Assembly: GCA_031426095.1 (NCBI GenBank)
Contig: JANPKP010000593.1
Span: forward strand, 1-45,055
Source of the DNA: Gemmataceae bacterium
GTDB taxonomy: Bacteria; Planctomycetota; Planctomycetia; Gemmatales; Gemmataceae
DNA: 45,055 nt
Direction of reading: 5' to 3'
The notes under the pieces are model-generated. The model was given only the letters and a program-made list of their open reading frames with translations. It had not been told where the DNA came from and ran no database searches. This document shows, piece after piece, positions 6,420-39,800 of this stretch. Numbering within the stretch: the stretch's first letter is position 1; every line of letters starts with the position of its first letter. The position numbers were made by a program, and so were the translations under genes.

Positions 6420-7889
6420 GTGGGCGAAACTTCACTCCCGTCCCTGCCCGACACCGACCCCCGGTACATCAACGCCGACATGGCCCCGGTCCCCCTCGCG
6501 GGCCGCAAGTGGGGCGTCCGCGACATGGCCGCCCTGTGGGTGTCGATGGCCGCGTGCATCCCCACGTACTTCAGCGCGTCGTCGCTCATCGCCGGCGGCA
6601 TGAGCTGGTGGCAGGCCGTCCTCACCATCTTCGCGGCGAACGTCATCATCCTCGTGCCGATGATCGTCAACGCCCACGCCGGGACCAAGTACGGCATCCC
6701 GTTCCCGGTCTACTGCCGGGCCGCGTTCGGGCTCCGCGGGGCGAACGTGCCGGCCCTCGTGCGGGCCTTCGTGGCATGCGGGTGGTTCGGCATCCAGACG
6801 TGGATCGGCGGCACCGCCGTCCACACCATCCTCGCCGTGTTCGCGCCAGATGTCCTGGCCCAGCCGAAGCTCGACGTCCTCGACATCACGGCCGCCGAAC
6901 TCGGCTGCTTCCTCGTGTTCTGGGCGGTCAACGTCTTCGTCATCGTCCGCGGCATCGAGTCGATCCGCATCTTGCTGAACATCAAGGCCCCGCTCCTGAT
7001 CGCCCTCGGGCTGCTGCTCCTGGCGTGGGCGTACTCGGCGGCCGGCGGCTTCGGGGAGGCGCTGAGCCGGCCGTCGACGCTCGGCCCCGACAAGTTCTGG
7101 CTCGCGTTCGCCGCGGGGCTGACGGCCAACGTGAGCTTCTGGGCCACCCTGTCACTGAACATCCCCGACTTCTCGCGGTACGCCCGCACCCAGCGGGACC
7201 AGGTCGTCGGGCAGGCGGCCGGGCTGCCGACCACGATGGCCCTGTACGCCTTCATCGGCGTCGCCGTCACGTCGGCCGCGTACATCATTTACCCGAACGC
7301 CGACCAGAAGAAGTTGTGGGACCCGATCTACCTGCTCAACCAGTTCGACAACAAGACGGCCCTCGTATTCTCCATGCTGGCGATCTGCCTGGCGACGCTG
7401 GCGACGAACATCGCGGCGAACGTGGTCAGCCCGGCGAACGACTTCGCCCACCTGTGGCCGCGGCGGATCGGCTTCCGCGCCGGCGGCGTCATCACGGCCG
7501 TCCTCGGCGTCCTCATCATGCCGTGGAAGCTCCTGGCCCTGCCGGGCGACTACATCATCGTCTGGCTCGTCGGCGTGTCGGTGCTGCTCGGGTCCGTCGG
7601 GGGCGTGCTGGCGGCCGACTACGTGGTCGTGCGGCGGGCGCGGCTCCACCTCGCCGGCCTTTACCGCCGCGAAGGCCCGTACTGGTACGGCAATGGGTCT
7701 AACCCGGTAGCCCTGGTGGCGATGGCGGTCGGCATCGCCCCGTGCGTGCCGGGGTTTCTGGAGGTGATTAAACTCGTGGAGGTGGGCGACCCGTGGACGA
7801 CGATCTACAGCTATGCGTGGTTCGTGAGCTTCGGGCTGGCGTCCGCGGTGTATGTGGTGGGGATGGCAATGAGGAAGCGCCCCGTTTAG
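6420..7889 (+). CDS. NCS1-family nucleobase/hydantoin/allantoin:cation symporter
   Basis: 489 aa, GTG start, multi-TM. NCS1-type N-terminus DLAPVPxxxRxW-like (NADMAPVPLAGRKWGVRDMAALWVSM). Confidence 0.85.
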   Translation: MGETSLPSLPDTDPRYINADMAPVPLAGRKWGVRDMAALWVSMAACIPTYFSASSLIAGGMSWWQAVLTIFAANVIILVPMIVNAHAGTKYGIPFPVYCRAAFGLRGANVPALVRAFVACGWFGIQTWIGGTAVHTILAVFAPDVLAQPKLDVLDITAAELGCFLVFWAVNVFVIVRGIESIRILLNIKAPLLIALGLLLLAWAYSAAGGFGEALSRPSTLGPDKFWLAFAAGLTANVSFWATLSLNIPDFSRYARTQRDQVVGQAAGLPTTMALYAFIGVAVTSAAYIIYPNADQKKLWDPIYLLNQFDNKTALVFSMLAICLATLATNIAANVVSPANDFAHLWPRRIGFRAGGVITAVLGVLIMPWKLLALPGDYIIVWLVGVSVLLGSVGGVLAADYVVVRRARLHLAGLYRREGPYWYGNGSNPVALVAMAVGIAPCVPGFLEVIKLVEVGDPWTTIYSYAWFVSFGLASAVYVVGMAMRKRPV

Positions 7890-7940
7890 TGACGCGACCG
7901 GCGGTCTCATCTGGCGACCGCCGGTCGCGGCGCTAAACGG
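7882..7940. repeat. Family-2 palindromic element (full copy); likely bidirectional terminator between permease and mmsA
   Basis: CCGTTTAGtgacGCGACCGGCGGTCtcatctggcGACCGCCGGTCGCggcgCTAAACGG. Perfect 13-bp inner stem (7894-7906/7916-7928) plus 8-bp outer stem. The permease TAG (7887-7889) lies in the left arm. Confidence 0.85.
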
Positions 7941-9582: not shown

Positions 9583-10452
9583 ATGCCGCGCGTCGTGCGG
9601 GGGGGCTTGATCCAGGCCACGCTCTGCGAGCCGGTCACGTCGCCCCTCGAGAAGGTCAAGCGGGCGATGGTCGACAAGCACGTCGCCCTCGTCACCGAGG
9701 CCGCCGGCCGCGGGGCCCAGGTCATCTGCCTCCAGGAACTCTTCTACGGCCCGTACTTCTGCGCCGAGCAGGAGAGCAAGTGGTACGACCTCACCGAGAA
9801 GGTGCCGGACGGGCCGACGACGAAGCTGTTCGCCGCCCTGGCCAAGAAGCTCGGCGTGGTGCTGGTGCTGCCGGTGTACGAGGAGGAGAACACGGGGGTG
9901 TACTACAACACCGCGGCCGTGATCGACGCCGACGGCACCTTTAAGGGCAAGTTCCGCAAGATCCACATCCCGCAGTGCGCCCCCGGGTTCTTCGAGAAGT
10001 TCTACTTCCGGCCCGGGAACATGGGCTACCCGGTGTTCGACACGGCCGTCGGTAAGGTCGGCGTCTACATCTGCTACGACCGCCACTTCCCCGAGGGGGC
10101 CCGGGCGCTGGGCCTCAACGGGGCCGAGGTCGTGTTCAACCCGTCGGCCACGGTGGCGGGGCTGAGCGAGTACCTGTGGAAGATCGAGCAACCGGCCCAC
10201 GCGGTGGCGAACGCCTATTTCGTGGGGGCGATCAACCGCCCGGGGTGGGAGGAGCCGTGGCGGATCGGCGAGTTCTACGGCCAGAGCTACTTCTGCGACC
10301 CGCGGGGCAAGATGCTCGCCGTCGGCAAGCGGGACGCCGACGACATCGTGATCGCCGACATGGACCTCGACCTGATCCGCGAGGTGCGGAACGTCTGGCA
10401 GTTCTACCGCGACCGCCGGCCGGAAACTTATGGGGCGCTGACCGCACCATGA
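9583..10452 (+). CDS. Beta-ureidopropionase / N-carbamoyl-beta-alanine amidohydrolase (nitrilase/CN-hydrolase superfamily)
   Basis: 289 aa. Glu-Lys-Cys triad contexts CLQELF, KFRKIHIP, VYICYDRHFPE. AGGAG SD 7 nt upstream. Confidence 0.85.
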   Translation: MPRVVRGGLIQATLCEPVTSPLEKVKRAMVDKHVALVTEAAGRGAQVICLQELFYGPYFCAEQESKWYDLTEKVPDGPTTKLFAALAKKLGVVLVLPVYEEENTGVYYNTAAVIDADGTFKGKFRKIHIPQCAPGFFEKFYFRPGNMGYPVFDTAVGKVGVYICYDRHFPEGARALGLNGAEVVFNPSATVAGLSEYLWKIEQPAHAVANAYFVGAINRPGWEEPWRIGEFYGQSYFCDPRGKMLAVGKRDADDIVIADMDLDLIREVRNVWQFYRDRRPETYGALTAP

Positions 10453-10526
10453 ACGTCGGGCAAAGCCCACCCGTCGCCACGGGTGGCTTGTTGGCGTTAT
10501 CCACATTTCGTCGGAGGTTCCCACCC

Positions 10527-11900
10527 ATGTCCACCGCCGCCCCGGCTCTCAAGCGCACCCCCCTTCCGATGGCCCCGCACACGCCGCAGCCTTACGACGG
10601 CCCTTCGAAGGCCGAGGTGATCGCCCTCCGCCAGCAGTACCTCTCACCCGGCCTCGTGACGTACTACAAGAACCCGCTGCTGATCGTCGAAGGGAAGATG
10701 CAGTACCTGTGGGACGAGACGGGGAAGCAGTACCTCGACGCCTTCGCCGGGATCGTCACCGTGTCCGTCGGCCACGCCCACCCTTACGTCCTGGACAAGG
10801 TCACGAAGCAGCTCGGCACGCTCCAGCACGCTACCACGATCTATCTGCACCCGACCGTCGGCCAGCTCGGCAAGAAGCTCGCGGACAAGATGCCGGCCGG
10901 GAGCGGGTTGAGCATGAGCTACTTCACCAACAGCGGCAGCGAGGCGAACGAGGTCGCCGTCCTCTCGGCCCGCGAGTTTACGAAGAACAGCGAGGTCATC
11001 AGTGTTCGCAACGGCTACCACGGCGGCACGTCGCTCCCGATGGGGCTGACGGCCCACGGCAACTGGAAGTTCAAGTCGAACGCCACCGTCAACGTCAAGC
11101 ACGCGACGCCGGGCTACTGCTACCGCTGCCCGTTCGGGCTGGAGTACCCGAGCTGCGAACTGAAGTGCGCCACCGATACGGAAGACCTCATCAAGTACGA
11201 GACCTCGGGCGAGATCGCGGCGTTCATCGGCGAGCCGATCCAGGGCGTGGGCGGCACGGTGACGCCGCCGAAGGAGTACTTCAAGATCGTGTACGACATC
11301 GTCCGCAAGCACGGCGGGCTGTGCATCGCCGACGAGGTGCAGACGGCGTTCGGCCGGACCGGCGACCACTACTGGGGGTTCCAGAACTACGGCGTCGTGC
11401 CCGACATGGTGACGATGGCGAAGGGCCTCGGGAACGGCGTCCCCATCGGGGCGATGACGACGCGGCCGGAGATCGCCGCGATGATGAAGAACCGCGTCCA
11501 CTTCAACACCTTCGGCGGCAACCCGATCAGCGTGACGCAGGGGCTGGCGACGCTCGACGTGATCGACGCCGACGGCATCCAGGCGAACGCCAAGGCGGTC
11601 GGCGGGCACCTGAAGGGCCGGTTGATGGAGCTTCAGGACAAGCACGCCCTCATCGGCGAGGTCCGCGGAATGGGTTTGATGCTCGGCGTCGAGTTGGTCC
11701 GCGACCGCGCCTCGAAGGAGCCGGGGAACACGGAGGCGGCGGCGGTCCTGGAGTTGTGCAAGGAGCGTGGCCTGATCCTCGGCAAGGGCGGCCTCTTCGG
11801 CAACACCTTCCGCATCAAGCCGCCCATGTGCGTCACGAAGACGGACGCCGACTTCCTGGTGGACACGGTCGTTGAGGTTCTGGAGATCGTGGGGACGTAA
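10527..11900 (+). CDS. Class-III PLP aminotransferase (AGXT2-like beta-alanine/3-aminoisobutyrate:pyruvate type)
   Basis: ORF 10176..11900 trimmed to the ATG at 10527 (MSTAAPALKRTPL...), 457 aa. Has SGSEANE, DEVQTAFGRTG and PLP-Lys block MAKGLGNG. Confidence 0.85.
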   Translation: MSTAAPALKRTPLPMAPHTPQPYDGPSKAEVIALRQQYLSPGLVTYYKNPLLIVEGKMQYLWDETGKQYLDAFAGIVTVSVGHAHPYVLDKVTKQLGTLQHATTIYLHPTVGQLGKKLADKMPAGSGLSMSYFTNSGSEANEVAVLSAREFTKNSEVISVRNGYHGGTSLPMGLTAHGNWKFKSNATVNVKHATPGYCYRCPFGLEYPSCELKCATDTEDLIKYETSGEIAAFIGEPIQGVGGTVTPPKEYFKIVYDIVRKHGGLCIADEVQTAFGRTGDHYWGFQNYGVVPDMVTMAKGLGNGVPIGAMTTRPEIAAMMKNRVHFNTFGGNPISVTQGLATLDVIDADGIQANAKAVGGHLKGRLMELQDKHALIGEVRGMGLMLGVELVRDRASKEPGNTEAAAVLELCKERGLILGKGGLFGNTFRIKPPMCVTKTDADFLVDTVVEVLEIVGT

Positions 11901-11902
11901 CC

Positions 11903-11955
11903 AACCCGACGCGTGAGCGTGGGCATAACGTATGCCCTCGCTCACGCGTCGGGTT
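11903..11955. terminator. 53-nt near-perfect hairpin at the convergent aminotransferase/preA junction (no U-tract)
   Basis: AACCCGACGCGTGAGCGtGGGCATaacgtATGCCCtCGCTCACGCGTCGGGTT. Pairing is 17 bp + 1 mismatch + 6 bp with a 5-nt loop (checked base by base). Confidence 0.7.
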
Positions 11956-11963
11956 AGTCCGCG

Positions 11964-13340
11964 TCACACGTGCACCGGCGGCTGTATCTTCTCGACCTTC
12001 CCCTCGGCGAGTAGCTTCTGATACTCGTTCCAAGACATCGGCGGCTTGCCGGTGTCGATTTCCTTCATCGTGATGCAATTCGAGACGGGGCACACGAGGC
12101 TGCACATGTTGCAGCCGACGCACACTTCCTGCTTGATGGTGAACTCGTTGACGATGCCGCCGCCCGCCCCGGGCAGCACCGTGAGCCCGCCCGAGCGCTT
12201 GGCGTGCCCGGCGTGGCCGTTCGACAGGTACTCGCCCTCGGCCACCTTGTCCCAGCGGATCGACTGGTGGGCCCCGTCCTCGCAGGCGATGTAGCAGAGG
12301 CCGCAGTGGATGCACTTCGTCTGGTCGATCTCCGCCACGACTTTGTAATTGAGGTCGAGGTCGCCCCAGTGCTTGATGCGGGGGACCGACTTGGCGACGA
12401 AATCGCTCACCTTGTCGAACCTCTTCTCACGCATCCAGTTCTCCAGCCCACTCGCCAGTTGTTCCACGATGCGGAAGCCGTAGTGCATGACGGCCGTGCA
12501 GACCTGCACCGACGTGGAGCCGAGGAGCATGAACTCGACCGCGTCCTGCCACGCCTGGATGCCGCCGATGCCGCTGATGGGAATCTTGATGGCCGGGTCG
12601 GAGGCGATGGCCGACACCATGTTCAGCGCGATCGGCTTGACGGCCGGGCCGCAGTACCCGCCGTGGCTCCCGAGCCCGCGGACGGCCGGCTTGGGGGCGA
12701 ACGAGTTCAGGTCGACGCCCATGATCGAGTTGATGGTGTTGATGAGTGACAGGCCGTCCGCCCCCGCCGCGGCCGCCGCCCGGCCGACGGCCGTCACGTC
12801 GCCGACGTTGGGCGTGAGTTTGACGATCACGGGGATGGTGGCGGCCTCCTTCACCCACCCGGTGATCATCCCGGCGTACTCGGGCACCTGGCCGACGGCC
12901 GCCCCCATCCCGCGCTCGCTCATGCCGTGCGGGCAGCCGAAGTTCAGCTCGAAACCGTCGGCCCCGGTGTCCTGGGCCTTCTTGACGATTTCGTGCCACG
13001 CCTCCCGGTTCGACTCGACCATGAGCGAAACGATCAGGGCGTGCTTCGGGTGCGACTTCTTGACGCGGGCGATCTCCTTGAGGTTCTCGTCCAGCGTGCG
13101 GTCGGTGATGAGTTCGATATTGTTGAGGCCGATGAGCTTCCGGCCGTCGTGGTCGAGCCCCCCATAACGCGAGGACACGTTCACGACGGGCTCGTTGCCG
13201 AGCGTCTTCCACACGGCCCCGCCCCACCCGGCGTCGAACGCCCGGCGGACCTGATACTCGGAGTTCGCCGGCGGGGCGCTCGCCAGCCAGAAGGGGTTAG
13301 GGGCCTTGATGCCGCAGAAGTCTATGCTCAGGTCGGGCAT
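11964..13340 (-). CDS. preA: NAD-dependent dihydropyrimidine dehydrogenase subunit PreA (DHOD-like FMN domain + 2x[4Fe-4S])
   Basis: Trimmed to the ATG at 13338-13340 (MPDLSIDFCGIKAPNPFWLASAPP...), 458 aa. NFGCPHGM. C-terminal CIHCGLCYIACEDG and CVGCNMCSLVCPV. Confidence 0.9.
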   Translation of the reverse strand: MPDLSIDFCGIKAPNPFWLASAPPANSEYQVRRAFDAGWGGAVWKTLGNEPVVNVSSRYGGLDHDGRKLIGLNNIELITDRTLDENLKEIARVKKSHPKHALIVSLMVESNREAWHEIVKKAQDTGADGFELNFGCPHGMSERGMGAAVGQVPEYAGMITGWVKEAATIPVIVKLTPNVGDVTAVGRAAAAAGADGLSLINTINSIMGVDLNSFAPKPAVRGLGSHGGYCGPAVKPIALNMVSAIASDPAIKIPISGIGGIQAWQDAVEFMLLGSTSVQVCTAVMHYGFRIVEQLASGLENWMREKRFDKVSDFVAKSVPRIKHWGDLDLNYKVVAEIDQTKCIHCGLCYIACEDGAHQSIRWDKVAEGEYLSNGHAGHAKRSGGLTVLPGAGGGIVNEFTIKQEVCVGCNMCSLVCPVSNCITMKEIDTGKPPMSWNEYQKLLAEGKVEKIQPPVHV

Positions 13341-13359: not shown

Positions 13360-13482
13360 GAATTAACCACCGGGTCACAGAGAACACCGAGCCGAGCCGA
13401 ACACGAGAGCAGAACAAAAATTGTGTTCTGAATTCTCGTGTGTTTCTTCCCTCGGTGTCCTCGGTGACTCGGTGGTTAATTC
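13360..13482. repeat. Family-1 ~122-nt palindromic intergenic element, copy 1
   Basis: Arms GAATTAACCACCGGGTCACAGAGAACACCGAG / CTCGGTGTCCTCGGTGACTCGGTGGTTAATTC (29/32 complementary). Inner stems ACACGAGA/TCTCGTGT and CAGAACA/TGTTCTG. Visibly less GC-rich than the flanks. Confidence 0.9.
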
Positions 13483-14810
13483 GATTTGAGCGATTGTGTA
13501 ATGCCCCACGCGGCGACCTTGCCGTCCTGGACGGCGTCCACAATCTCGCCGGCCCGGACGCAGTCGCCGCCGGCGAACAGCTTCGGGACCGCGGTCGCCC
13601 CCGTCGTGCGGTCGATAACCACTTTGGCCCCGTGTACGGCGAGGCCGGGGAGCGCCTTCAGGAGGCCGATCAGCGGCTCCTGGCCGAGGGCCTTCACGAC
13701 CATGTCGGCGGCGATTACGTACTCGGACCCGGGGACCACACCGGGGGCCCCGTGGCGGCCGGCGTGGGCGGCGGTGCGGGCGAACTCGACGCCGGCGGCC
13801 CGGCCGTCCGGGCCGGGCACCACCCGTAGCGGCTGGGCGAACCACTCGAAGCGGATGGCGTCGGCCTTCGCCAGCTCGTACTCGTAGGCGAACGCCGGCA
13901 TCGCCTCGGCCCCGCGGCGGTAGGCCACGATCACTTCTTCCGCCCCGAGCCGGTGGGCGGCGGTCGCCACGTCGACGGCCGTGTTGCCCCCGCCGATTAC
14001 GATCACGCGCTTGCCGATCTCGCACGCGGTGAACGGCTTCGTGTGCGTCTGGAAGATGAAGTCGAGGGCCTCCCACACGCCCGTGAGGTTTTCGTTCTCG
14101 ATGCCGAGGGGCAGCGTCCGCCCCAGGCCGACGCCGAGGAACACGGCGTCGTACTCGGCGAGTAACTTCACCACGCCGTCGGCGCCGACCGGGGTGTTGA
14201 GCCGGATGTCGACGCCGATCTCCTTGACACGCTCGACTTCCGACAGGCCGAACGGGGTGGAAATCTTGTACGCCGCGATGCCGAGGGTGTTGAGGCCGCC
14301 GGGCGTGTCGCGGGCCTCGAACACGACCACGTCGTGCCCGGCCTTCCGCAACTCGTGGGCGCACGACAGCCCGGCCGGGCCGGAGCCGACCACGGCCACC
14401 CGCTTGCCGGTCGGCGTGCCGGGCCGGAAGAACTTCACGCCGTGAGAGGTGGCCGCGTCGGTGGCGTGCCGCTGGAGGCGGCCGATCTGCACCGGCGATT
14501 TCAGCAGCGTGTTGTCCACGCACGCCCCCTCGCACAGCACTTCCGTGGGGCAGGCCCGGGCGCACGACCCGCCGAAAATGTTCGCCTCGAGGATGGTGGC
14601 GGCGGCCCCGAGGTCGTTGTGGTGGAGGATCTGGCGGATGAACTTGGGCACGTCGATGTGCGTCGGGCAGGCCCGGGTGCAGGGGGCGTCGAAGCAGTAC
14701 AGGCAGCGACTCGCCTCGGCGATCGCCTCGTCCCCGGCCAGCGGCGGCGGCAGGTCGGCGAACCGCTGGTGGAGGATGTCGAGGCTGTACCGCTCGCCGG
14801 CCAAAGGCAT
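13476..14810 (-). CDS. preT: NAD-dependent dihydropyrimidine dehydrogenase subunit PreT (GltD-like)
   Basis: Trimmed to the ATG at 14808-14810 (MPLAGERYSLDILHQRF...), 444 aa. CLYCFDAPCTRACPTHIDV, VAVVGSGPAGLSCA. AGGAG 7 nt upstream. The TAA stop (13476-13478) lies inside the copy-1 repeat arm. Confidence 0.9.
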   Translation of the reverse strand: MPLAGERYSLDILHQRFADLPPPLAGDEAIAEASRCLYCFDAPCTRACPTHIDVPKFIRQILHHNDLGAAATILEANIFGGSCARACPTEVLCEGACVDNTLLKSPVQIGRLQRHATDAATSHGVKFFRPGTPTGKRVAVVGSGPAGLSCAHELRKAGHDVVVFEARDTPGGLNTLGIAAYKISTPFGLSEVERVKEIGVDIRLNTPVGADGVVKLLAEYDAVFLGVGLGRTLPLGIENENLTGVWEALDFIFQTHTKPFTACEIGKRVIVIGGGNTAVDVATAAHRLGAEEVIVAYRRGAEAMPAFAYEYELAKADAIRFEWFAQPLRVVPGPDGRAAGVEFARTAAHAGRHGAPGVVPGSEYVIAADMVVKALGQEPLIGLLKALPGLAVHGAKVVIDRTTGATAVPKLFAGGDCVRAGEIVDAVQDGKVAAWGITQSLKSN

Positions 14811-14830: not shown

Positions 14831-14952
14831 GAATTAACCACCGAGTCACCGAGAACACAGAGAGGGAAATACGCGAGAAGATCGAACCACCAGATTTATT
14901 CTTCTCAGTGTTTGGCTCGGCTCGGTGTTCTCTGTGACTCTGTGATTAATTT
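14831..14952. repeat. Family-1 palindromic element, copy 2 (internal part inverted relative to copy 1)
   Basis: GAATTAACCACCGAGTCACCGAGAACAC ... GTGTTCTCTGTGACTCTGTGATTAATTTC. The CACCGAGCCGAGCC(G/A)AACAC block is on the opposite side compared with copy 1. Confidence 0.9.
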
Positions 14953-16346
14953 CTGATCTCCCCCGCCTTCTCCCGTGGTAGCCACTTCCCCCAGCCGTCC
15001 TCGGCGACGCACTTTGAGTCGGCCACGACTTGACGGCCGCGGACGAACGTCTGCTCCGCGAAGCCGGCCAGCTCCCACCCCTGGAACGGGTTCCAGTCGG
15101 CCCCACCCTCCATCTTCGCGTGGTCCACCGTCGTCGTCGCATTCGGGTCGAACACCACGATGTCGGCGTCGCTCCCGGCCGCGAGGACGCCCTTGCGGGG
15201 GTAGAGGCCCATGACCTTGGCGGGATTGGCGCAGCACTTCTCCACGAACTTCGTGACCGGCATCCGACCGCCGAGCACGCCCTTCGTGTAGACGAGTGGG
15301 AGGAGCGTTTCGAGGCCCGGCATGCCCATCGGAATCTTCGTCCAGTCGCCCTCCCAGCGGGCCTTCTGGGCCTTCGTGAAGGTGCAGGTGTCGGTCGAGA
15401 TCACGCACACCTCGCCGTCATCCAGGCCTTTCCAGAGGCGTTCGATGTCCTTCGGCTTCTTGAGCTGTGGGCAGCAGGCGTACAGGTGGCCGTCGGGCTG
15501 TGCGAACACGGAGTCGTCCATCACGAGATATTGCACACAGGTTTCCGCATACACATCCACGCCGCGGGCGCGGGCGGCCTTGATGATGTCGGCCCCCTCG
15601 CCGGTGGACATGTGGACGACGTAGAGCCGGCCGCCTGTCGCCTCGGCCCACGTCACGGCCCGCTGGATGGCCTCCGCCTCGATGAAGTTCGGCCGCGTCA
15701 TGGCGTGGAGTTGGGCCCCGTACTTGTTCATCAGTTCGGGCGTGTGGTGGCGGGCGATGAGTTCGTCCAGCACCCGGCTCGATTCGGCGTGGACGAGCAA
15801 CATGCCGCCGAGCTGCTTGCAGCTTTCGAGGGCGTTGTAGATGGCCCGGTCGTCCGACTGCCACCCCTCGGCGGCGTAGATCATGAACTCCTTGAACGTG
15901 GGGCAGCCGCGGGCCACCATTGCCGGCATCTCGGGGCCGTGGCGGTCCCAGTTGGTGATCGCCATGTGGAAGGCGTAATCGACGCACGCCTTCGGCTCGG
16001 CCCGCTCCAGCCAGGCGTGGTAAGCGTCGTCGAGCGACTGCTCGCCGTAGGGGATGGCGAAGTCGATGACGGTGGTAACGCCGCCCATCGCCGCAGCCCG
16101 TGTGCCGGTCCGCCAGTCGTCGCTCGACACGGTGCCGCAGAAGGGAAGTTCGAGGTGGACGTGGACGTCGAGGCCGCCGGGAATGACGTACTTCCCGGAG
16201 GCGTCGAGGACGCGGGCCCCGTCCGGGGTGGCGGCCAGGCCGGGGGCGACGGCAACGATCTGTTCACCACGCACGGCCACGTCGGCCTTCGTGGTGCCTT
16301 CGGGGCTAACGACGGTGCCGTTGGCGATGATGAGGTCGTAAGCCAC
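14946..16346 (-). CDS. hydA: Dihydropyrimidinase / D-hydantoinase
   Basis: 466 aa, GTG start with GAGGAA upstream. Cyclic amidohydrolase signature DVHVHLE. TAA stop (14946-14948) inside the copy-2 repeat arm. Confidence 0.9.
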   Translation of the reverse strand: MAYDLIIANGTVVSPEGTTKADVAVRGEQIVAVAPGLAATPDGARVLDASGKYVIPGGLDVHVHLELPFCGTVSSDDWRTGTRAAAMGGVTTVIDFAIPYGEQSLDDAYHAWLERAEPKACVDYAFHMAITNWDRHGPEMPAMVARGCPTFKEFMIYAAEGWQSDDRAIYNALESCKQLGGMLLVHAESSRVLDELIARHHTPELMNKYGAQLHAMTRPNFIEAEAIQRAVTWAEATGGRLYVVHMSTGEGADIIKAARARGVDVYAETCVQYLVMDDSVFAQPDGHLYACCPQLKKPKDIERLWKGLDDGEVCVISTDTCTFTKAQKARWEGDWTKIPMGMPGLETLLPLVYTKGVLGGRMPVTKFVEKCCANPAKVMGLYPRKGVLAAGSDADIVVFDPNATTTVDHAKMEGGADWNPFQGWELAGFAEQTFVRGRQVVADSKCVAEDGWGKWLPREKAGEIRN

Positions 16347-21000: not shown

Positions 21001-21341
21001 GCAACCCGGACGTGTCCGTCCGCAGCCGCGGCGTGATGGAGAAGTGCACGTACTGCGTCCAGCGGATCCGCGGGGCCGAGATCGTGGCCGAGCGGGAGTA
21101 CGCCCGGGGCGAGCGGAAGGACCTGAAGATCATGGACGGCGAGGTGGTGACGGCCTGCCAGTCGGCCTGTCCAACGGCGGCCATCGTGTTCGGCGACCTG
21201 AACGACACGGCCAGCACGGTCAACCGCTGGAAGAGCGAGCCGACGAACTACGGCCTCCTCGCCGAGCTGAACACGATGCCGCGGACCTCCTACCTGGCGT
21301 CCCTGCGGAACCCGAACCCGGCCATGCCGGGGAAAGGATGA
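18018..21341 (+). CDS. actB: Alternative Complex III subunit ActB (fused molybdopterin-like B1 + FeS B2)
   Basis: Trimmed to the ATG at 18018, 1107 aa. Tat-type signal TRRGFLSLMGASLALAGAAGC. Ferredoxin motifs CIGCNACVVACQSEN and CVQCEKAPCEIVCP. Confidence 0.9.
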   Translation: MPPEANDDRQPPQWSGLDEYLDSDAFREAMADEFPEDAAEWTDPVTRRGFLSLMGASLALAGAAGCSPRPASGRKILPYTSQPLNMTPGVPLFFATAAPLAGYGAGVLVRSHEGRPVKVEGNPDHPSSLGGTSVFTQASVLDLYDPDRSRRPLHKGNPVSYEAAVDAVRKRLEGLKAKGGAGLRILSETVTSPTLADQLDALLKDYPEARWVQYDAVGRDNVREGTRKAFGKAVNVTYDFTKADVVLSLDADFLTVGPGQTRYGRDFAARRKVRQNKADGGTPEQMSRVYAVECMPGLVGTQADHRLPLLASHVESFARAVAAELKVGGAPAAGTLPDAAKAWVGPLAADLRAHTGKVIVIAGDHQPASLHALALAINSSLGSVGENLPVRVWAPVEARPDGKVIDLPTLVDQMAKKQVDTLLLLGGNPAYTAPVDVPFAEALKNVPVKVHVGLYDADETASLCDYHVPTTHYLEAWGDVRGHDGTTTILQPLIAPLYAAKSLHEFLVDLGGAGAREGREVVRAYWKRRFTADGRSGEFEDFWQESVRKGVVADSAAKPEAATLAGDWSANAPPPPAAPADFEVNFRPDPTLYDGRFANNGWLQELPKPVSKLTWDNAAFVSPKTAKDLNLKKWFAWTAGERGRVEVSVVELEFRGRKVKAPIWALPGHPDNAVTVHLGSGREKAGRVGNVESEPNAEGKPVRGFNAFALRDSKSPWFAGGLKVTATPDEYYLACVQGNWSMVEKDPISGTPLDRRPARRGTLDQLKSDPKFAKVPPASPGETELIDLNVPAPGDRSHGLPNKGTGVAPDNKPHDHSNKDATRHGADQEKHEGHDHRLTPLTMYNPNETLYPKLDEQQRRRWGMAIDLQACIGCNACVVACQSENNIPVVGKKEVTRGHEMHWIRIDRYYSGDPATGADLDTHFQPVACVQCEKAPCEIVCPVGATVHSADGLNDMVYNRCVGTRYCSNNCPYKVRRFNFLTFQDWATDTIKLGRNPDVSVRSRGVMEKCTYCVQRIRGAEIVAEREYARGERKDLKIMDGEVVTACQSACPTAAIVFGDLNDTASTVNRWKSEPTNYGLLAELNTMPRTSYLASLRNPNPAMPGKG

Positions 21342-21402
21342 AGGATGAAGGATGAAGGATGAAATCGACCGCATTCATCCTTGAGCCTTGATCCCTGATC
21401 CT
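21335..21402. repeat. Heptamer-repeat hairpin (AGGATGA)x4 - loop - 4 complementary heptamers, in the actB-actC spacer
   Basis: AGGATGA x4 (21335-21362), loop aatcgaccgcat, then TCATCCT TGAGCCT TGATCCC TGATCCT (21375-21402). 23/28 arm positions are complementary. The actB TGA (21339-21341) is inside the first unit. Confidence 0.85.
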
Positions 21403-21425
21403 TATTTGCGAAGGGGGCTTGAACC

Positions 21426-34728: not shown

Positions 34729-35702
34729 GGAAGGCGACCCTGACGGCCGAACCCGAGGTTTCGCCGCTCGAAACGTTCGTGGGGCCGCTCGCATCCCCGG
34801 CTTCGCCCGAGGCGGTGGCGGTGGCCGGGCCGACGCGGCTGGCCGACTTCAAGGAACTGACCAAGCCGCGGATCGCGGTCATGGCCCTGTTCACCGTCGC
34901 CATCGGCTACCTGCTCGGGGCCGGGCGGTCGGTCGACGGGGTGGTCTTGTTCAACACGCTCGTGGGGGCCGGGTTGGTGGCCGCCGGCGGCAGCGCCCTG
35001 AACCAGTGGCTCGAACGCGCCATCGACGGGCGGATGCGGCGGACCGCGAACCGACCACTCCCCGCCGGCCGGCTCACCCCCGGCGAAGCGCTGGCGTTCG
35101 GCGTCGGCCTCGGGGTGGCGGGGATGGCGTACCTCGCGCTCGTGGTCGGGCCGGAAGCGGCCGCCGTCGCCGGGGCCACGTTCGTCGCCTACGTCGGCAT
35201 TTACACGCCGCTCAAGACGGTGACGGCGTGGAACACCCTCGTCGGGGCGGTGCCGGGGGCGTTGCCGCCGGTCATCGGCTGGTGCGCGGCCCGCGGGTGG
35301 GGCGACCCGGCCGGGGCGGCGGCCCTGTTCCTGGTGCTGTTCCTGTGGCAAATCCCGCACTTCCTGGCCATCGCCTGGATGTACCGCGACGACTACGCCC
35401 GCGGCGGCCTGCGGATGCTCCCCGGCACCGACCCGTCCGGCCGGCTCACCGCCGCCGTGATGATCGGGACGTGCGTGCTGCTGCTCGCCTCCGGGCTGGC
35501 CCCCGTGTGGCTCGGCATGGGCGGCTGGCTCACGGCCGCGGGGGCGGTGCTGTTCGGCGTCCTGTTCCTCCGGCCGGCGGTGAAGTTCGCCACCCACCGC
35601 ACCGACCGCCAGGCCCGCAAGGTGCTGCGGGCGTCGCTCCTGTACCTGCCGGGCGTGCTGGGGTTGCTGCTCATCGACCACTTGGTCCGGCTCGTGGGGT
35701 AG
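34725..35702 (+). CDS. ctaB: Protoheme IX farnesyltransferase (heme O synthase)
   Basis: ATGA overlap with ctaA, 325 aa. UbiA-family blocks NQWLERAIDGRMRRTANRPLPAG and YRDDYARGG. Confidence 0.9.
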   Translation: MRKATLTAEPEVSPLETFVGPLASPASPEAVAVAGPTRLADFKELTKPRIAVMALFTVAIGYLLGAGRSVDGVVLFNTLVGAGLVAAGGSALNQWLERAIDGRMRRTANRPLPAGRLTPGEALAFGVGLGVAGMAYLALVVGPEAAAVAGATFVAYVGIYTPLKTVTAWNTLVGAVPGALPPVIGWCAARGWGDPAGAAALFLVLFLWQIPHFLAIAWMYRDDYARGGLRMLPGTDPSGRLTAAVMIGTCVLLLASGLAPVWLGMGGWLTAAGAVLFGVLFLRPAVKFATHRTDRQARKVLRASLLYLPGVLGLLLIDHLVRLVG

Positions 35703-35712
35703 GAATGAAAGC

Positions 35713-35833
35713 GAATTCACCACGGAGTCACAGAGAACACCGAGGGCGGAAACACGAGAGTCGGAAAGAACGGGATTCTTCTTCTCGGTGTTCGGCTCGG
35801 CTCCGTGTCCTCTGTGACTCCGTGGTTCAATTT
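35713..35833. repeat. Family-1 palindromic element, copy 3 (ctaB/SCO1 spacer, overlaps the SCO1 5' end)
   Basis: GAATTCACCACGGAGTCACAGAGAACACCGAG ... GTGTCCTCTGTGACTCCGTGGTTCAATTTC. Same orientation as copy 2. Confidence 0.9.
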
Positions 35834-36481
35834 CTCCTCTTTCTCTCGCTCCTCATCACCGGCTGCGGGCGGCCCGCCCCGACGCCCCACGCCCCCCCGC
35901 CGCGGGCCGAAGCCCCCGACCTCGACTACCCCGTCGGCACGTTCTCGCTCACGGAGCGGAGCGGGAAGACGGTCACGGACGCCGACCTCAAGGGGAAGGT
36001 GTGGGTGGCGTCGTTCGTGTTCACCCGCTGCACCGCCGGGTGCCCGCAGGTGGCCGCCACCGTCGCCAGGCTGCAAACCGAGTTCGCCGCCGAGCCCGAC
36101 GTGCGGCTCGTCACCTTTACCGTCGATCCGGCGCGAGACGATAAGGCCGAGTTGCAGAAGTACGCCACGCACTTCCACGCCGACCCCGCCCGCTGGCTGT
36201 TCCTGACCGGCGACGAGAAGGCGGTCCACACCCTCCTCGAACAACAGTTCAAACAGGGCGTGGGCGAACGCCCCGGGCCGGGGGTGAAGGCGGGCACCGA
36301 GTTCGCCCAGCACAGCACCAAGCTGGCGGTGGTGGACCGCAAAGGGGTGGTCCGCGGCATCTACGACGGCATCCGGGGCGATTCCCCGCCGGACGCCGAC
36401 GCCGGTTACGCCGACGAGCGATACGCGGACGCCTACCGCCGGCTGACGGCAAAGGTGAAGGCGCTGCTCCGGGAGCCGTGA
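35822..36481 (+). CDS. SCO1/SenC-family copper chaperone lipoprotein (paralog 2)
   Basis: CTAGCP CxxxC motif, downstream His (AQHSTK), lipobox LITGC. The only in-frame starts are GTG 35822 (inside the repeat arm) or ATG 35705 (reads through the whole repeat), so the start is uncertain. Confidence 0.75.
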
Positions 36482-36575: not shown

Positions 36576-36767
36576 ATGTCGCTTCTGAAATGGGCGCTCG
36601 TGTTCCTTGTGATCTCGGTGATCGCGGCCCTGTTCGGCTTCGGCGGCATCGCCGAGGGGACGGCCGACATCGCCAAGGTGCTGTTCTTTATCTTCGTGGC
36701 GATCTGCGTCGTGCTGTTCGTGATGGGGGCGTTCGTCTACCGCTCCATCGCCGGCCCGCCGGCGTGA
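36576..36767 (+). CDS. DUF1328/YtjA-like small membrane protein
   Basis: 63 aa. [26 protein letters not shown] motif. GGGAGG at 36564-36569. Confidence 0.8.
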
Positions 36768-36783: not shown

Positions 36784-36828
36784 GACGCGGGCCGGGCGGC
36801 GGGAACATCTCGTCGCCCGGCCCGCGTC
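36784..36828. terminator. 15-bp perfect GC hairpin at the convergent DUF1328/kinase junction
   Basis: GACGCGGGCCGGGCG-loop-CGCCCGGCCCGCGTC (extendable to 18 bp with a G-U pair). Overlaps the kinase TGA (36827-36829). Confidence 0.65.
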
Positions 36829-39800
36829 ATTTCGGGGCGGCCGCATCGCCGTCCCACTCGACCTTGCACTTCGGCCACGCGGCTCGGAGCCGCTTCACCC
36901 CGTCGGCCGTCACCTTCGTGCCTTTGAGGACGAGTCGCTTCGGCCCGGACGTCTTGGCCAGGGCGTCGACCCCGCCATCCCCGAACGGGCCGCCCTCGAC
37001 CTCCAAGACGGACAGCGTCGGGATGGCGGCCGCCGCCGCGACCCCGGCCTCGGGGTATTTGCACTTGTAAAGACCGAGGTGGATCAGCCGGGGGGACCGG
37101 CCGAGGGCCGTCAGGGCGTCGGCGTCCAGGTCGCACTCGTACAGGTTGAGGCGTTCGGTCAGTGTCGGCATGGCGGCGATCCGCGAGCCAGCCGCCGCGT
37201 CCAGCCCCTTGCAGCGCACCAGGGTGAGGCTCTGGAGGGAGAGGCCGGTGATAGCCCCCCAACCGGCTTCGCTGCCGATCATGTTCTCGATCTTCAAGTT
37301 CGTCGTGGTCGTCAGTTCCCCGAGCCGCGCGACGTCGGCCGCGCCGGCCCGACCGACCCGAAGGGTGAGTTCCGTGAGTTTCGGGAACGTCTTGAGGGCG
37401 TCGATCGTCGTGCCGGTCAGGGGGACGGGGCTGACCAATTTCACCAGCGTGTCGCGGCACGGGGCCGCGGCCAGCCGGGCCACGGCCGCCTCCGAAAACG
37501 CCAGGTTGGCGAACGGGTCGTAGACCGCTTCGAGCCCGGCGAGGGGGGCGACGGCCGGGACCAGGACGTCGTCCACGAACCCCTTTGGCGGGCTCGGCTT
37601 GGCCCGCGACAGAGCCGTCAGGGTGAACGGCCCGGCCGGGAGCGAGTCGCCAGACTTGACCGAGACGGATACCCCGGACGGCAACCGGACGCCGATCGAC
37701 TCGAAGTGCGGCAGCAGGGCCTCGGCCGCGGTGCGGTCGGGGTCAGCTTTCGGCTTCGCGTCGTACTCCTTCCAGAACTCGGCCGCCGGCTTCTGTCCGA
37801 TCGTCTTCAAAGACTTCGATTGCTTTAACGCCTTCTCGTCCTCGGCCGGGATGGTAAGGGCGCCCGCGACGGCGATCTCTTGAATGGTGTCCGCGAAGAA
37901 CCGCAGCCCGCGCACGTTGATGCAATACACCCACGTCAGGGGCGCACCCTTGAGTGGTTCGAGGTCTATCGAGTGTTGTACCGCGACCCCCAAGCGGGTG
38001 AGTGGCATCCCGCGGAGGGGGGACAAGTCTTTCACCTTCGTGACGGTGAGAAAGACGTGTTCCAACTCTTGCCCGGCCAGTGGGGAGAGGTCCGTCACGT
38101 CGGTGTAGCTCAGGTTGAGTTGCTTCAACCGAACGCCCTGGAGCGGGGTGAGGTCCGCAACGGGGTTGTTTGATACATTCAGATGCCAGAGTTTTCCGAG
38201 GCCGGCGAGCAGTCGGAGGTCGCGGAGTATGCCGCGTTCGGTAGGCGAGCGGCCCCAGGCGTGCAACTTCTCCAACTCGGGGAACGCCGCGAGCGGGGAC
38301 AGGTCGGCGACATTGGACGTATCGACTTTGACGACGAGAACCGTCCCGTCCGCGTGCCGCTTTTCGACCGTCAAGGCCGACTCGGACCCCGGGTTGCGGC
38401 GGACGAACTCGGCCGCGACCTCCTTCTCCTGCGCGTCCGGCGTCATCGCCCGCACCTTTGCCACCCACGCCGGGTCGAGCGGGGGCAGGGCGGGCGGCCT
38501 CGCGGCGTCGAACTCCTTCCAGAACTCGGCCGCCGTTTTGCCGTTGAGCCTCTTGAGCCCCTTGAGGCCGCGAACCAAGGCGGGGTCGGCGAGCGCCTCG
38601 GCCGGGACGTGGAGATCGTAAAGCTCGTCCATCCCACGTAGTACGTCCAGCCGGGTGACGGGGTTGCCGCTCACATAAAGGGCCCACATCCTTTTCCCTG
38701 CCAGCGGCGACAGGTCGGTGATTCGGTTGTTGAACGCATACAGCCGCCCGACCGGCATGGACTTGAGCGGTCGGAGGTCGGCCACCCGATTGTTCGGCAC
38801 CTCGACCCCATCGATCGGTAACCCGACGAGCGGCGACAGGTCGGCGAGGATGCCCTGCTTGCCGGCCGGTGGGAAGCAATCCAGTCTGAGGAGATTCGGA
38901 AACCCCTGGAGGGGGGAGAGGTCCGCGACCGAGTCGGACACGATCGTGACGTGGCCCTGGAAGTCGTTGGGCTTGAGGGGGTGGGGCGTGAACTTAATCG
39001 CACCGTCGTACCCCGGGTTGCGCCGCTTCAACTCGGCCACCACTTCCGCGGCCCGGGCGTCCGGCGTCATCACCCTCACCTTCGCCACCCAAGCCGGGTC
39101 GAGCGGGGGGAACGGCGACGGCGGGCGGGTGAGGGTGCCCGTGCCCGTGACTTCCGTCACCGCGAGCGAGTGGAGGACCGTGCCCGAGTCTTTGAGGCTG
39201 ACCCCGACGAGCGGTTCCGGGCGCGGGTCGTTCGCCTTACTCACTTGGGCCGATGTCCCCCGCCATGCGGTCACGACCCGGCCGTTCCACTCGGCCTCCA
39301 CGCCGCCCTTGCGGATCCGGACGACGACCCGATGCCGGCCGCGCGTCGACTTGTCCAAGTCGGCCGCGCCGGACCAGTCGGGGGACGACGGCCCCTTCCC
39401 ACCGATGGTCGTGAACCCCATCCGCCCAGTACTCGGGCGAATCATCCAGGTGAGTGGGCGGCCGTCCCATGCGAATTCGAGGGCGTAGTCCCCGCCGTCG
39501 GGCGGGAGGGTGAACTCGGCCGCCACGTCGTACTCGGCGGGCGGGGCGTAGGGGGCCAGGATCATCGACCGGGGGTCCGAGGACTTGTCCGGCGGGGTTC
39601 CGGCCAGTCCTAACGACCCCTTGGCCCAGATCCCGGAGACCGCGTCCTTGTCCGGGTCGATGAGCGGCAGCAGGTCGATCGTCACCGGCTTCGCCGGAAT
39701 CGCCGCCACCCCCTTCGGGTCCACCGTCGCCACCGGCTTGCCGTCCTTCTCGACCACCACCGTTGTGCCGTCGGGCACCGTGATGACCGTCTCCTTGCCG

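Follow-up and report, generated by a model that had tools for sequence, protein, structure and literature searches.

Few components of bacterial genomes are as poorly understood as small palindromic repeats. The hairpins that REP sequences form near stop codons reportedly reduce translation of the upstream gene (Liang, Rudd and Deutscher 2015). To our knowledge, no small palindromic repeat of the type considered here has been described for Planctomycetota, and its arm sequence is presumably unrelated to the 26-nt inverted repeat of Correia elements. Among the better-known families, REPs and MITEs lie downstream of open reading frames (ORFs) and act as RNA hairpins (PMC3733652), and Correia elements are bound by RNase III, which cleaves or protects them, and alter the expression of neighboring genes (PMC2649163, PMC10969869). 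REP sequences carry an unpaired GTAG or CGTC tag at one end, and a CGTC tag is also found in RPEs (PMC3733652), which insert in frame into genes (PMC10969869). [quoted passage not shown]

A 45,055-nt stretch of a Gemmataceae contig (the window, meaning the whole of the DNA that was analyzed) contains three copies of a ~122-nt palindromic element that shares features with several of these families. Like MITEs such as Correia/CREE, ERIC (~127 bp) and Chunjie, the element is short (<300 bp), non-coding and AT-richer than its host, and its long TIRs allow the whole unit to fold into a stable hairpin. As in those families, its copies are dispersed in either orientation, here as three copies at unrelated junctions, lie in transcribed intergenic spacers, correspond to empty orthologous sites and in some cases overlap genes (PMC3184786, PMC10969869, PMC2649163). 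Unlike MITEs, it shows neither a target-site duplication nor a parent IS in the sequences searched, and its arms are built of tandem 8-nt units. It is not similar in sequence to those of the described elements that allowed a comparison. Correia elements have a TA duplication and an IHF site in the core, whereas the window element lacks the TA duplication. Compared by description only, Chunjie has 9-bp direct repeats and a length of 178-235 bp, against no such repeats and 122 nt here. A ~180-nt family in a Geobacter MAG has the arm module and no clear direct repeats, and Chunjie is a possible relative of these Geobacter members.

As with REP, BIME and REPIN sequences, the element and its relatives are extragenic, mostly follow an ORF between co-directional or convergent genes, form inverted pairs in long hairpins and are present in high copy number in some genomes (PMC3733652). 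This location applies to all three window copies and to 54 of 62 related hairpins with resolved context, the other eight being divergent. While a REP is an imperfect palindrome of 20-40 nt, the window arm is a purine-rich run of tandem CACNGAG units without self-complementarity; in addition, it has no GTAG or CGTC tag, no RAYT was present in any sequence examined, and the interior is conserved within the family. Copy 3, if translated from the ATG at 35705, resembles an RPE in being a palindromic repeat that lies in frame and stop-free in a coding region. It differs from RPEs in the lack of a CGTC tag and in its putative peptide, which matches none of 5.8 billion proteins where RPE peptides are conserved in many. 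A strong stem right after a stop codon, with A-rich and T-rich flanks, is also reminiscent of terminators and of intercistronic RNase III stem-loops, and the window stem exceeds 20 bp and is thus long enough to be a double-strand RNase substrate. In contrast to these structures, it has no uninterrupted U tract, is about five times longer and belongs to a homologous unit repeated at unrelated sites.

The first-pass annotation had likened the element to REP/BIME, Correia or MITE sequences without being able to name a described family. The likeness stands insofar as this is a dispersed, non-coding, AT-richer palindromic repeat inside operons, but a target-site duplication, a GTAG/CGTC tag and a RAYT or IS partner, which define those families, were not found in the sequences searched. 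No Rfam family reached its gathering threshold, either in the window or in 18 related loci; matches below threshold were plant miRNA-precursor models, which represent generic long-hairpin noise. A literature search by sequence string and by topic found no published description of the element. The element resembles a MITE or REPIN in behavior and is a demonstrable member of no named family. The focal family is ordinary in kind; what is unusual is its octamer-unit arm, the two polarities of that arm and its coding-competent ends.

Three homologous copies inside two operons

All three copies are present where the first-pass annotation had placed them, and they and their host genes are arranged as follows.

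Copy 1, 13360-13482, minus in family orientation: ~122-nt palindrome, sense to the hydA-preT-preA transcript
Copy 1 outer arm, 13360-13391, partner 13451-13482: GAATTAA plus three 8-nt units, CCACCGGG TCACAGAG AACACCGAG
Copy 2, 14831-14952, plus in family orientation: ~122-nt palindrome, antisense to the minus-strand operon
Copy 2 outer arm, 14831-14862, partner arm 14921-14952
Copy 3, 35713-35833, plus: ~122-nt palindrome, sense to the ctaB-SCO1 transcript
Copy 3 outer arm, 35713-35744, partner arm 35801-35833
preA, 11964-13340, minus: DHO_dh and 4Fe-4S domains
preT, 13476-14810, minus: Fer4_20 and Pyr_redox_2 domains
hydA-like gene, 14946-16346, minus: amidohydrolase of dihydropyrimidinase type
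SCO1/SenC-family lipoprotein gene, 35822-36481, plus: database gene call

The element is 121-123 nt long, has no autonomous ORF of its own and ends in GAATTAACCAC and GTGGTTAATTC. Its inverted arms span ~30-49 nt and are 80-94% complementary across the three copies; those of copy 1 are 49 nt long, 80% complementary and separated by 25 nt. The arm core GAGTCACMGAGRACAC occurs six times in the window, twice per copy, where 0.15 occurrences are expected by chance. Whichever strand is taken, each copy forms a single long hairpin (MFE -51 to -75 kcal/mol, z -4.9 to -11.2), and none of the shuffled versions folds equally well, which bears out the claim that the whole unit can form one hairpin. The copies were also said to be less GC-rich than their surroundings, and their GC content is indeed 0.47-0.49 against ~0.70 in the flanks, in a 70% GC contig.

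Aligned over their full length, the three copies have a mean column identity of 85%, with the arms more conserved than the interior. The alignment includes an asymmetric interior common to all three, GGCTCGGCTC on one side and GGGNGGAAA on the other, and because the match runs from end to end through this interior, the copies are homologous and dispersed, with a definable orientation, rather than local stems. Both the alignment and an nhmmer profile of the three copies place copy 1 in inverted orientation relative to copies 2 and 3. The profile has exactly three matches in the window, with ~130 bits each and no partial extras, and the reversed orientation of each copy scores only 54-70 bits. 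Outside the three copies, the 60-nt interior was absent from 0.97 Mb of related loci searched with the profile. The exact family was likewise missing from a metagenome scan with a subfamily-specific 25-mer, which returned three unrelated hairpins, from viral contigs (0 matches) and from plasmids, and the peptide encoded by the element has no homologue among the 5.8 billion proteins. The arms have a much wider distribution: they are kept in relatives and far beyond, so the copies are not the local duplications, without arm conservation, that the first-pass annotation had considered as a possible outcome.

Copies 1 and 2 separate hydA, preT and preA on the minus strand, and copy 3 lies on the plus strand between ctaB (UbiA family) and the SCO1-family lipoprotein gene, at the end of an alternative-complex-III/cytochrome oxidase cluster. 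The spacers holding the copies measure 116-135 nt. No sigma-70-like promoter was scored at any copy, nor was a canonical terminator on either strand, the latter because the T run is interrupted. Given the tight spacing and the lack of promoter and terminator signals, the elements must be transcribed within the operon mRNAs. Placement between co-directional operon genes, as first described, applies to all three copies, although copy 3 also overlaps the 5' end of SCO1. Similarly, copy 1 fills the preT-preA spacer roughly and not exactly, since it overlaps the last two codons and the TAA of preT and ends 19 nt before the preA ATG. In related loci, the neighbors include DUF1559, N-methyl and PSCyt-type genes, which are hallmarks of planctomycetes, and the best database hits carry the name Gemmataceae.

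The layout of the element, a GC-rich stem between A-rich GAATTAA and T-rich TTAATTC runs, could in principle serve as a bidirectional intrinsic terminator or attenuator. The symmetry of A tract, stem and T tract would suit this function, as would the long hairpins, related and unrelated, that occupy the space between convergent genes of the window and of related genomes. However, no copy has a terminator-like site and the T run is broken, and termination between preT and preA, two subunit genes of a single enzyme whose reading frames overlap in one relative, or within the start of SCO1 would be strongly polar. Termination is accordingly a highly improbable role for these copies.

The window holds other hairpins as well. 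The spacer between the genes for a 1131-aa Fe-S protein and an NrfD-like protein has one at 21338-21410, with a GC content of 0.51 in the 0.70 contig. Its 5' arm, (GGATGAA)x4, includes the TGA stop of the Fe-S gene and pairs with TTCATCC/TTGAGCC/TTGATCC/CTGATCC, a second and unrelated design of tandem units. Near-perfect GC-rich palindromes fill convergent-gene spacers at 7886-7940, 11897-11957 and 36790-36823, and at 11897 the stem begins with the TAA stop of an aminotransferase gene (TAACCAACCCGACGCG...CGCGTCGGGTTAG). Palindromes at convergent gene ends are also found in the related loci L118, L119 and L125. A hydrophobic 63-aa ORF right after SCO1 (36576-36767) may be a small membrane protein. 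A 117-nt direct repeat with 79% identity (38382-38498 and 39006-39122, 624 nt apart) lies inside a gene for a 1448-aa Ser/Thr kinase with leucine-rich repeats and probably reflects internal protein repeats.

Element ends, reading frames and the same junctions in relatives

Two features go beyond the first-pass annotation: the arms consist of tandem 8-nt units found across phyla, and the ends of the element supply stop or start codons. The codons concerned are listed here.

preT stop TAA, 13476-13478, minus: within the terminal AATTAA of copy 1
hydA stop TAA, 14946-14948, minus: within the terminal AATTAA of copy 2
preA start ATG (MPDLSID...), 13338-13340, minus: 19 nt beyond copy 1 in the direction of transcription, with orthologous starts
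preT start ATG, 14808-14810, minus: preceded by AGGAG, 20 nt past copy 2 on the transcript
ctaB stop TAG, 35700-35702, plus: 10 nt ahead of copy 3
ATG, 35705-35707, plus: 2 nt past the ctaB stop, stop-free in frame through the whole of copy 3 into SCO1
GTG, 35822-35824, plus: in the last unit of the copy 3 right arm, SCO1 start in the database gene call (219 aa)

The TAA of preT is the sole stop in its frame up to the preA ATG, 138 nt downstream and in phase, and the TAA of hydA is likewise the sole stop up to the preT ATG, again 138 nt downstream and in phase. In copy 3, the triplet corresponding to the terminal TAA is TCA. The in-phase pattern was noticed post hoc, with a chance probability estimated at roughly 0.004-0.01. 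A general rule that the downstream start lies in frame with the upstream stop was rejected, as only one of five comparable spacers in relatives is in frame and open, and the 138-nt pattern of the window stays a post-hoc curiosity. The hydA stop occupies the same codon position in the related loci L118 and L119 as it does in the window (...KAGEIRN*, ...KAGEIKY*, ...N*). This shared position suggests that the TAA may be ancestral and that the element abuts it rather than having brought it.

At the ctaB-SCO1 junction, the ATG at 35705-35707 is possibly the ancestral start of SCO1, judging from comparison with an empty site in a relative. With this start, copy 3 adds 39 in-frame codons between codons 3 and 4 of SCO1, and removal of 35714-35830 (117 nt) would give a canonical lipoprotein signal peptide that resembles the MPRFLLLLPL..GC of orthologues. 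A start at GTG 35822 instead loses the conserved Arg3 of SCO1 orthologues. Copy 3 may be translated as part of the SCO1 signal peptide.

Relatives show the same junctions in other states. In L126, only 5 nt separate the stop of ctaB from the start of SCO1 (TGA cgcat ATG CCC CGC TTT CTC), and homology between the window and this locus resumes at SCO1 codon 4 (TTT CTC onward). In one relative, preT and preA overlap by 4 nt. Other hairpins occupy the corresponding junctions in L118, L119 and L125: the hydA-preT junction of L118 has a stem of CACAAAG units, L119 has stems of CGCNGAG and CACNGAG units, and the preT-preA junction of L118 and the ctaB-SCO1 junction of L125 hold unrelated GC-rich palindromes. 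Further differences in the presence or absence of hairpins exist between L118 and L119. Since the junctions are empty or otherwise filled in relatives, the elements are insertions subject to turnover.

The preT protein of the window has no identical counterpart on record, and its closest relative (P0002, from a 1676-nt JGI contig) is 78% identical. Whereas the preT protein of the window ends in ...LKSN*, P0002 continues as ...LKSN-LATDEHR; its additional residues look like the translation of a hairpin arm (GCC ACC GAC GAG CAC AGA), and a 93-nt spacer precedes the next gene. From these letters, the orthologous junction may hold a related element whose TAA has been lost. In L126, the region that follows the SCO1 locus (9786-10862) holds a pair of small ORFs of 83 and 86 aa and, next to it, a second pair of the same sizes, which suggests a tandem duplication of a two-gene module.

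Mobility, RNA structure and selection

The first-pass annotation had observed that no copy is next to a transposase, and no gene for a transposase, Y1/RAYT protein or integrase exists anywhere in the 45-kb window. No autonomous partner gene was found in 0.97 Mb of related loci, and no protein family recurs within 2 kb of the motif across at least 117 loci, apart from the coding false positives in Actinomycetota and Streptomyces described below. A longer element with the same ends was found neither in the window nor in related loci, and the ORFs enclosed by distant arm pairs look, from their translations, like ordinary cellular genes. With no transposase, RAYT or longer element of this kind, the case for mobility is a comparative one. 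Among 82 related hairpins, abutting direct repeats of at least 3 nt occur no more often than they do when the flanks are shuffled. The 4 nt outside CCAC...GTGG form inverted pairs in relatives (CTAA/TTAG, GGAA/TTCC) and hence belong to the palindrome. The TTAA/TTAA flanks in the window are uninformative on target-site duplication because TTAA is itself palindromic, and the TTCA/TTCA flanks of copy 3 are a single case.

Integron attC-like sites that mark gene cassettes would account for mobility of a different kind. Related hairpins of 58-190 nt with variable centers fall in the right size range, the ends GCCTAAC...GTTAGGC of some relatives match the attC core and inverse-core consensus, and stop codons lie in TAAC, as in many cassettes. 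The ends in the window, AATTAAC/GTTAATT, nevertheless misfit RYYYAAC/GTTRRRY, and the near-perfect stems lack the extrahelical bases and the unpaired spacer that define attC. Moreover, copies 1 and 2 point in opposite directions within one operon, the window has no integrase, and the flanking genes are core metabolic genes that are syntenic in relatives. Orientation, structure and context effectively refute recombination sites of this type, which are left with almost no probability.

An alternative possibility is that the hairpins are RNA elements selected by the host to set the expression of hydA/preT/preA and ctaB/SCO1 through processing, decay or coupling, the repeats being a re-used design. 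Strong hairpins do occur at corresponding junctions in several Gemmataceae, and they begin at or near stop codons. In addition, the arms are the better conserved part, and the variable unit position is paired in 104 of 172 cases where 61 ± 6 are expected, which would suit a maintained stem. Yet 40% of these positions are unpaired, with G:T and A:C mismatches equally frequent, and no G·U advantage of the sense strand was seen: sense folds better than antisense in 19 of 41 related hairpins (the reverse in 22), and antisense folds slightly better in all three window copies. The alignment of these three copies, a small sample, has a single compensatory pair, and its covariation term is positive. 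A host-selected element is also difficult to reconcile with relatives that manage without any spacer, with hairpins that vary in sequence and length among species at one junction, with family members between divergent genes, and with the orientation of the window copies, of which 1 and 3 are sense and 2 is antisense to the operon. Selection by the host therefore seems unlikely, and an origin as a palindrome with largely neutral decay afterwards accounts for the pattern better than an RNA structure that is being maintained.

With slightly better than even confidence, the three copies are regarded here as a lineage-specific, small, non-coding and selfish palindrome of the MITE/REPIN/Correia kind, inserted at junctions inside two operons and tolerated in their transcripts. 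Survival at these sites would reflect tolerance, to which several properties may contribute. An in-phase TAA at the entering end, a stop-free frame across the element and a hairpin that draws a stop codon and the next start together would keep the neighboring genes expressible. By analogy with Correia elements, and in view of the REP hairpins near stop codons, a ~55-bp stem that begins at a stop codon would be expected to serve on the mRNA as an RNase III-type substrate or a 3'-end protector. It would also make the translational coupling of the two neighboring cistrons less tight, whereas it is not expected to terminate transcription efficiently. Against a selfish palindrome stand the lack of a target-site duplication, the lack of a transposase, RAYT or longer element in the sequences searched, the small number of focal copies, only three, the possibly ancestral TAA of hydA and an RNA-level selection signal that was not detected. 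Even so, no rival explanation fits the orientation, the polymorphism and the signal tests as well.

The 8-nt-unit arm across phyla

The arm consists of three, sometimes four or five, tandem 8-nt units of the form N-CAC-N-GAG. A 21-nt pattern of the arm was found at no fewer than 117 loci (one genome per species) against ~4 expected by chance, an estimate; the total is a lower bound from a scan of a genome collection that is biased by the search pattern. Gene contexts at most related loci come from rough ORF calling, the assignment of several MAGs may be incorrect, and some singletons may be mis-binned. Among the matches listed, ~20 are coding sequences in Actinomycetota and are false positives. 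The rest are non-coding and are found in Planctomycetota (~35), Acidobacteriota (~25), Geobacter/Desulfuromonadota, Chloroflexota, Gemmatimonadota and Myxococcota, plus singletons; the module is supported by multiple MAGs in Planctomycetota, Acidobacteriota, Desulfuromonadota, Chloroflexota, Gemmatimonadota and Myxococcota. The coding matches in Actinomycetota (L003, L007, L010, L012, L037, L054, L067, L071, L080, L086, L094, L103, L107 and L115) fall in a gene for a secreted, M4 protease-like metalloprotease with the motif HE(M/L)(S/T)HGVTENT, and five Streptomyces loci match a second conserved gene. These Actinomycetota and Streptomyces matches were rejected as arm elements, the protein motif coinciding with the search pattern.

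A unit array and its complementary array form hairpins with loops of 8 to 196 nt, and the interior differs by lineage, as in the 180-nt family of the Geobacter MAG. The module is also found as single unpaired arms. Among 105 related hairpins from the listed loci, 62 have a resolved context, with 41 between co-directional, 13 between convergent and eight between divergent genes, and half of the 105 start within ~25 nt of an upstream stop. In gene-anchored DNA, which had not been chosen by the motif, there are ~0.7 hairpins per 10 kb with a very uneven distribution: L119 has six in 21 kb (five found by regular expression plus the preT-preA hairpin), and L125 and L126 have none.

The polarity of the module is reversed in Acidobacteriota, where its CCAC end is next to the loop and the whole lies inside a larger palindrome. 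A simple model in which the arm is a transposon terminus leaves this opposite polarity unexplained. At the reversed loci (L001, L004, L021, L034, L047, L053, L056, L072, L083, L084, L090, L098 and L117), the hairpin runs from a CTCNGTG array through a 20-50-nt loop to a CACNGAG array, each arm having four units. The reversed module of Pyrinomonadaceae sits within a ~135-nt palindrome with outer ends of its own, AGTGGCCTAATTT...AAATTAGGCCACT, and in L083 and L084 two reversed modules bracket gene segments of 1.7 kb and 4 kb. Other arrangements include a 115-bp unit with one hairpin that is repeated 5.3 times in tandem at 96% identity in a KSB1 MAG (L039, 396-1004), and thirteen unit arrays in 8 kb of an Opitutae MAG (L055), among them hairpins of the variant units CGCCAAG/CTTGGCG and CGCAGAG. 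Families of unit variants may thus coexist in one genome.

The occurrence of a ~25-bp duplex in both polarities and as unpaired arms fits recognition of the duplex rather than of one hairpin. Together with the lack of strand asymmetry, it would be compatible with a site that acts at the DNA level, either as a cruciform or as a binding array of nucleoid, gyrase, IHF-like or uptake-type proteins, as proposed for BIMEs and inverted uptake sequences. No candidate protein is known, however, and the 8-bp spacing of the units does not match the helical repeat. Identity across phyla is unusual for species-specific binding or uptake signals, and a pure binding array would not need the interior that is conserved among the three copies. 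A DNA-level site is thus a very unlikely explanation of the window copies, and the selfish palindrome remains the preferred one. That arms of 8-nt units are common to the hairpins of many phyla does point to a widely available trans-acting factor. It is possible, although the proposal is a tentative and somewhat doubtful one, that the arms are an undescribed pan-phylum building block, with N-CAC-N-GAG stems in at least six or seven phyla implying a conserved unknown factor or a new way of spreading palindromes, and that the elements insert into genes in one fixed reading phase, which would let them function as a stop, a start or in-frame coding sequence.

Should the three copies prove typical, inserted hairpins that begin at a stop codon would be numerous in the operons of Gemmataceae. 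Such hairpins can take the place of a start codon or extend a signal peptide, with consequences for gene calling, for operon prediction and for the modeling of translational coupling in this family. The shared 8-nt-unit arm also makes for a testable question, namely what recognizes or spreads the duplex, and the answer could reveal a new mobilization system or a conserved RNA- or DNA-binding activity.
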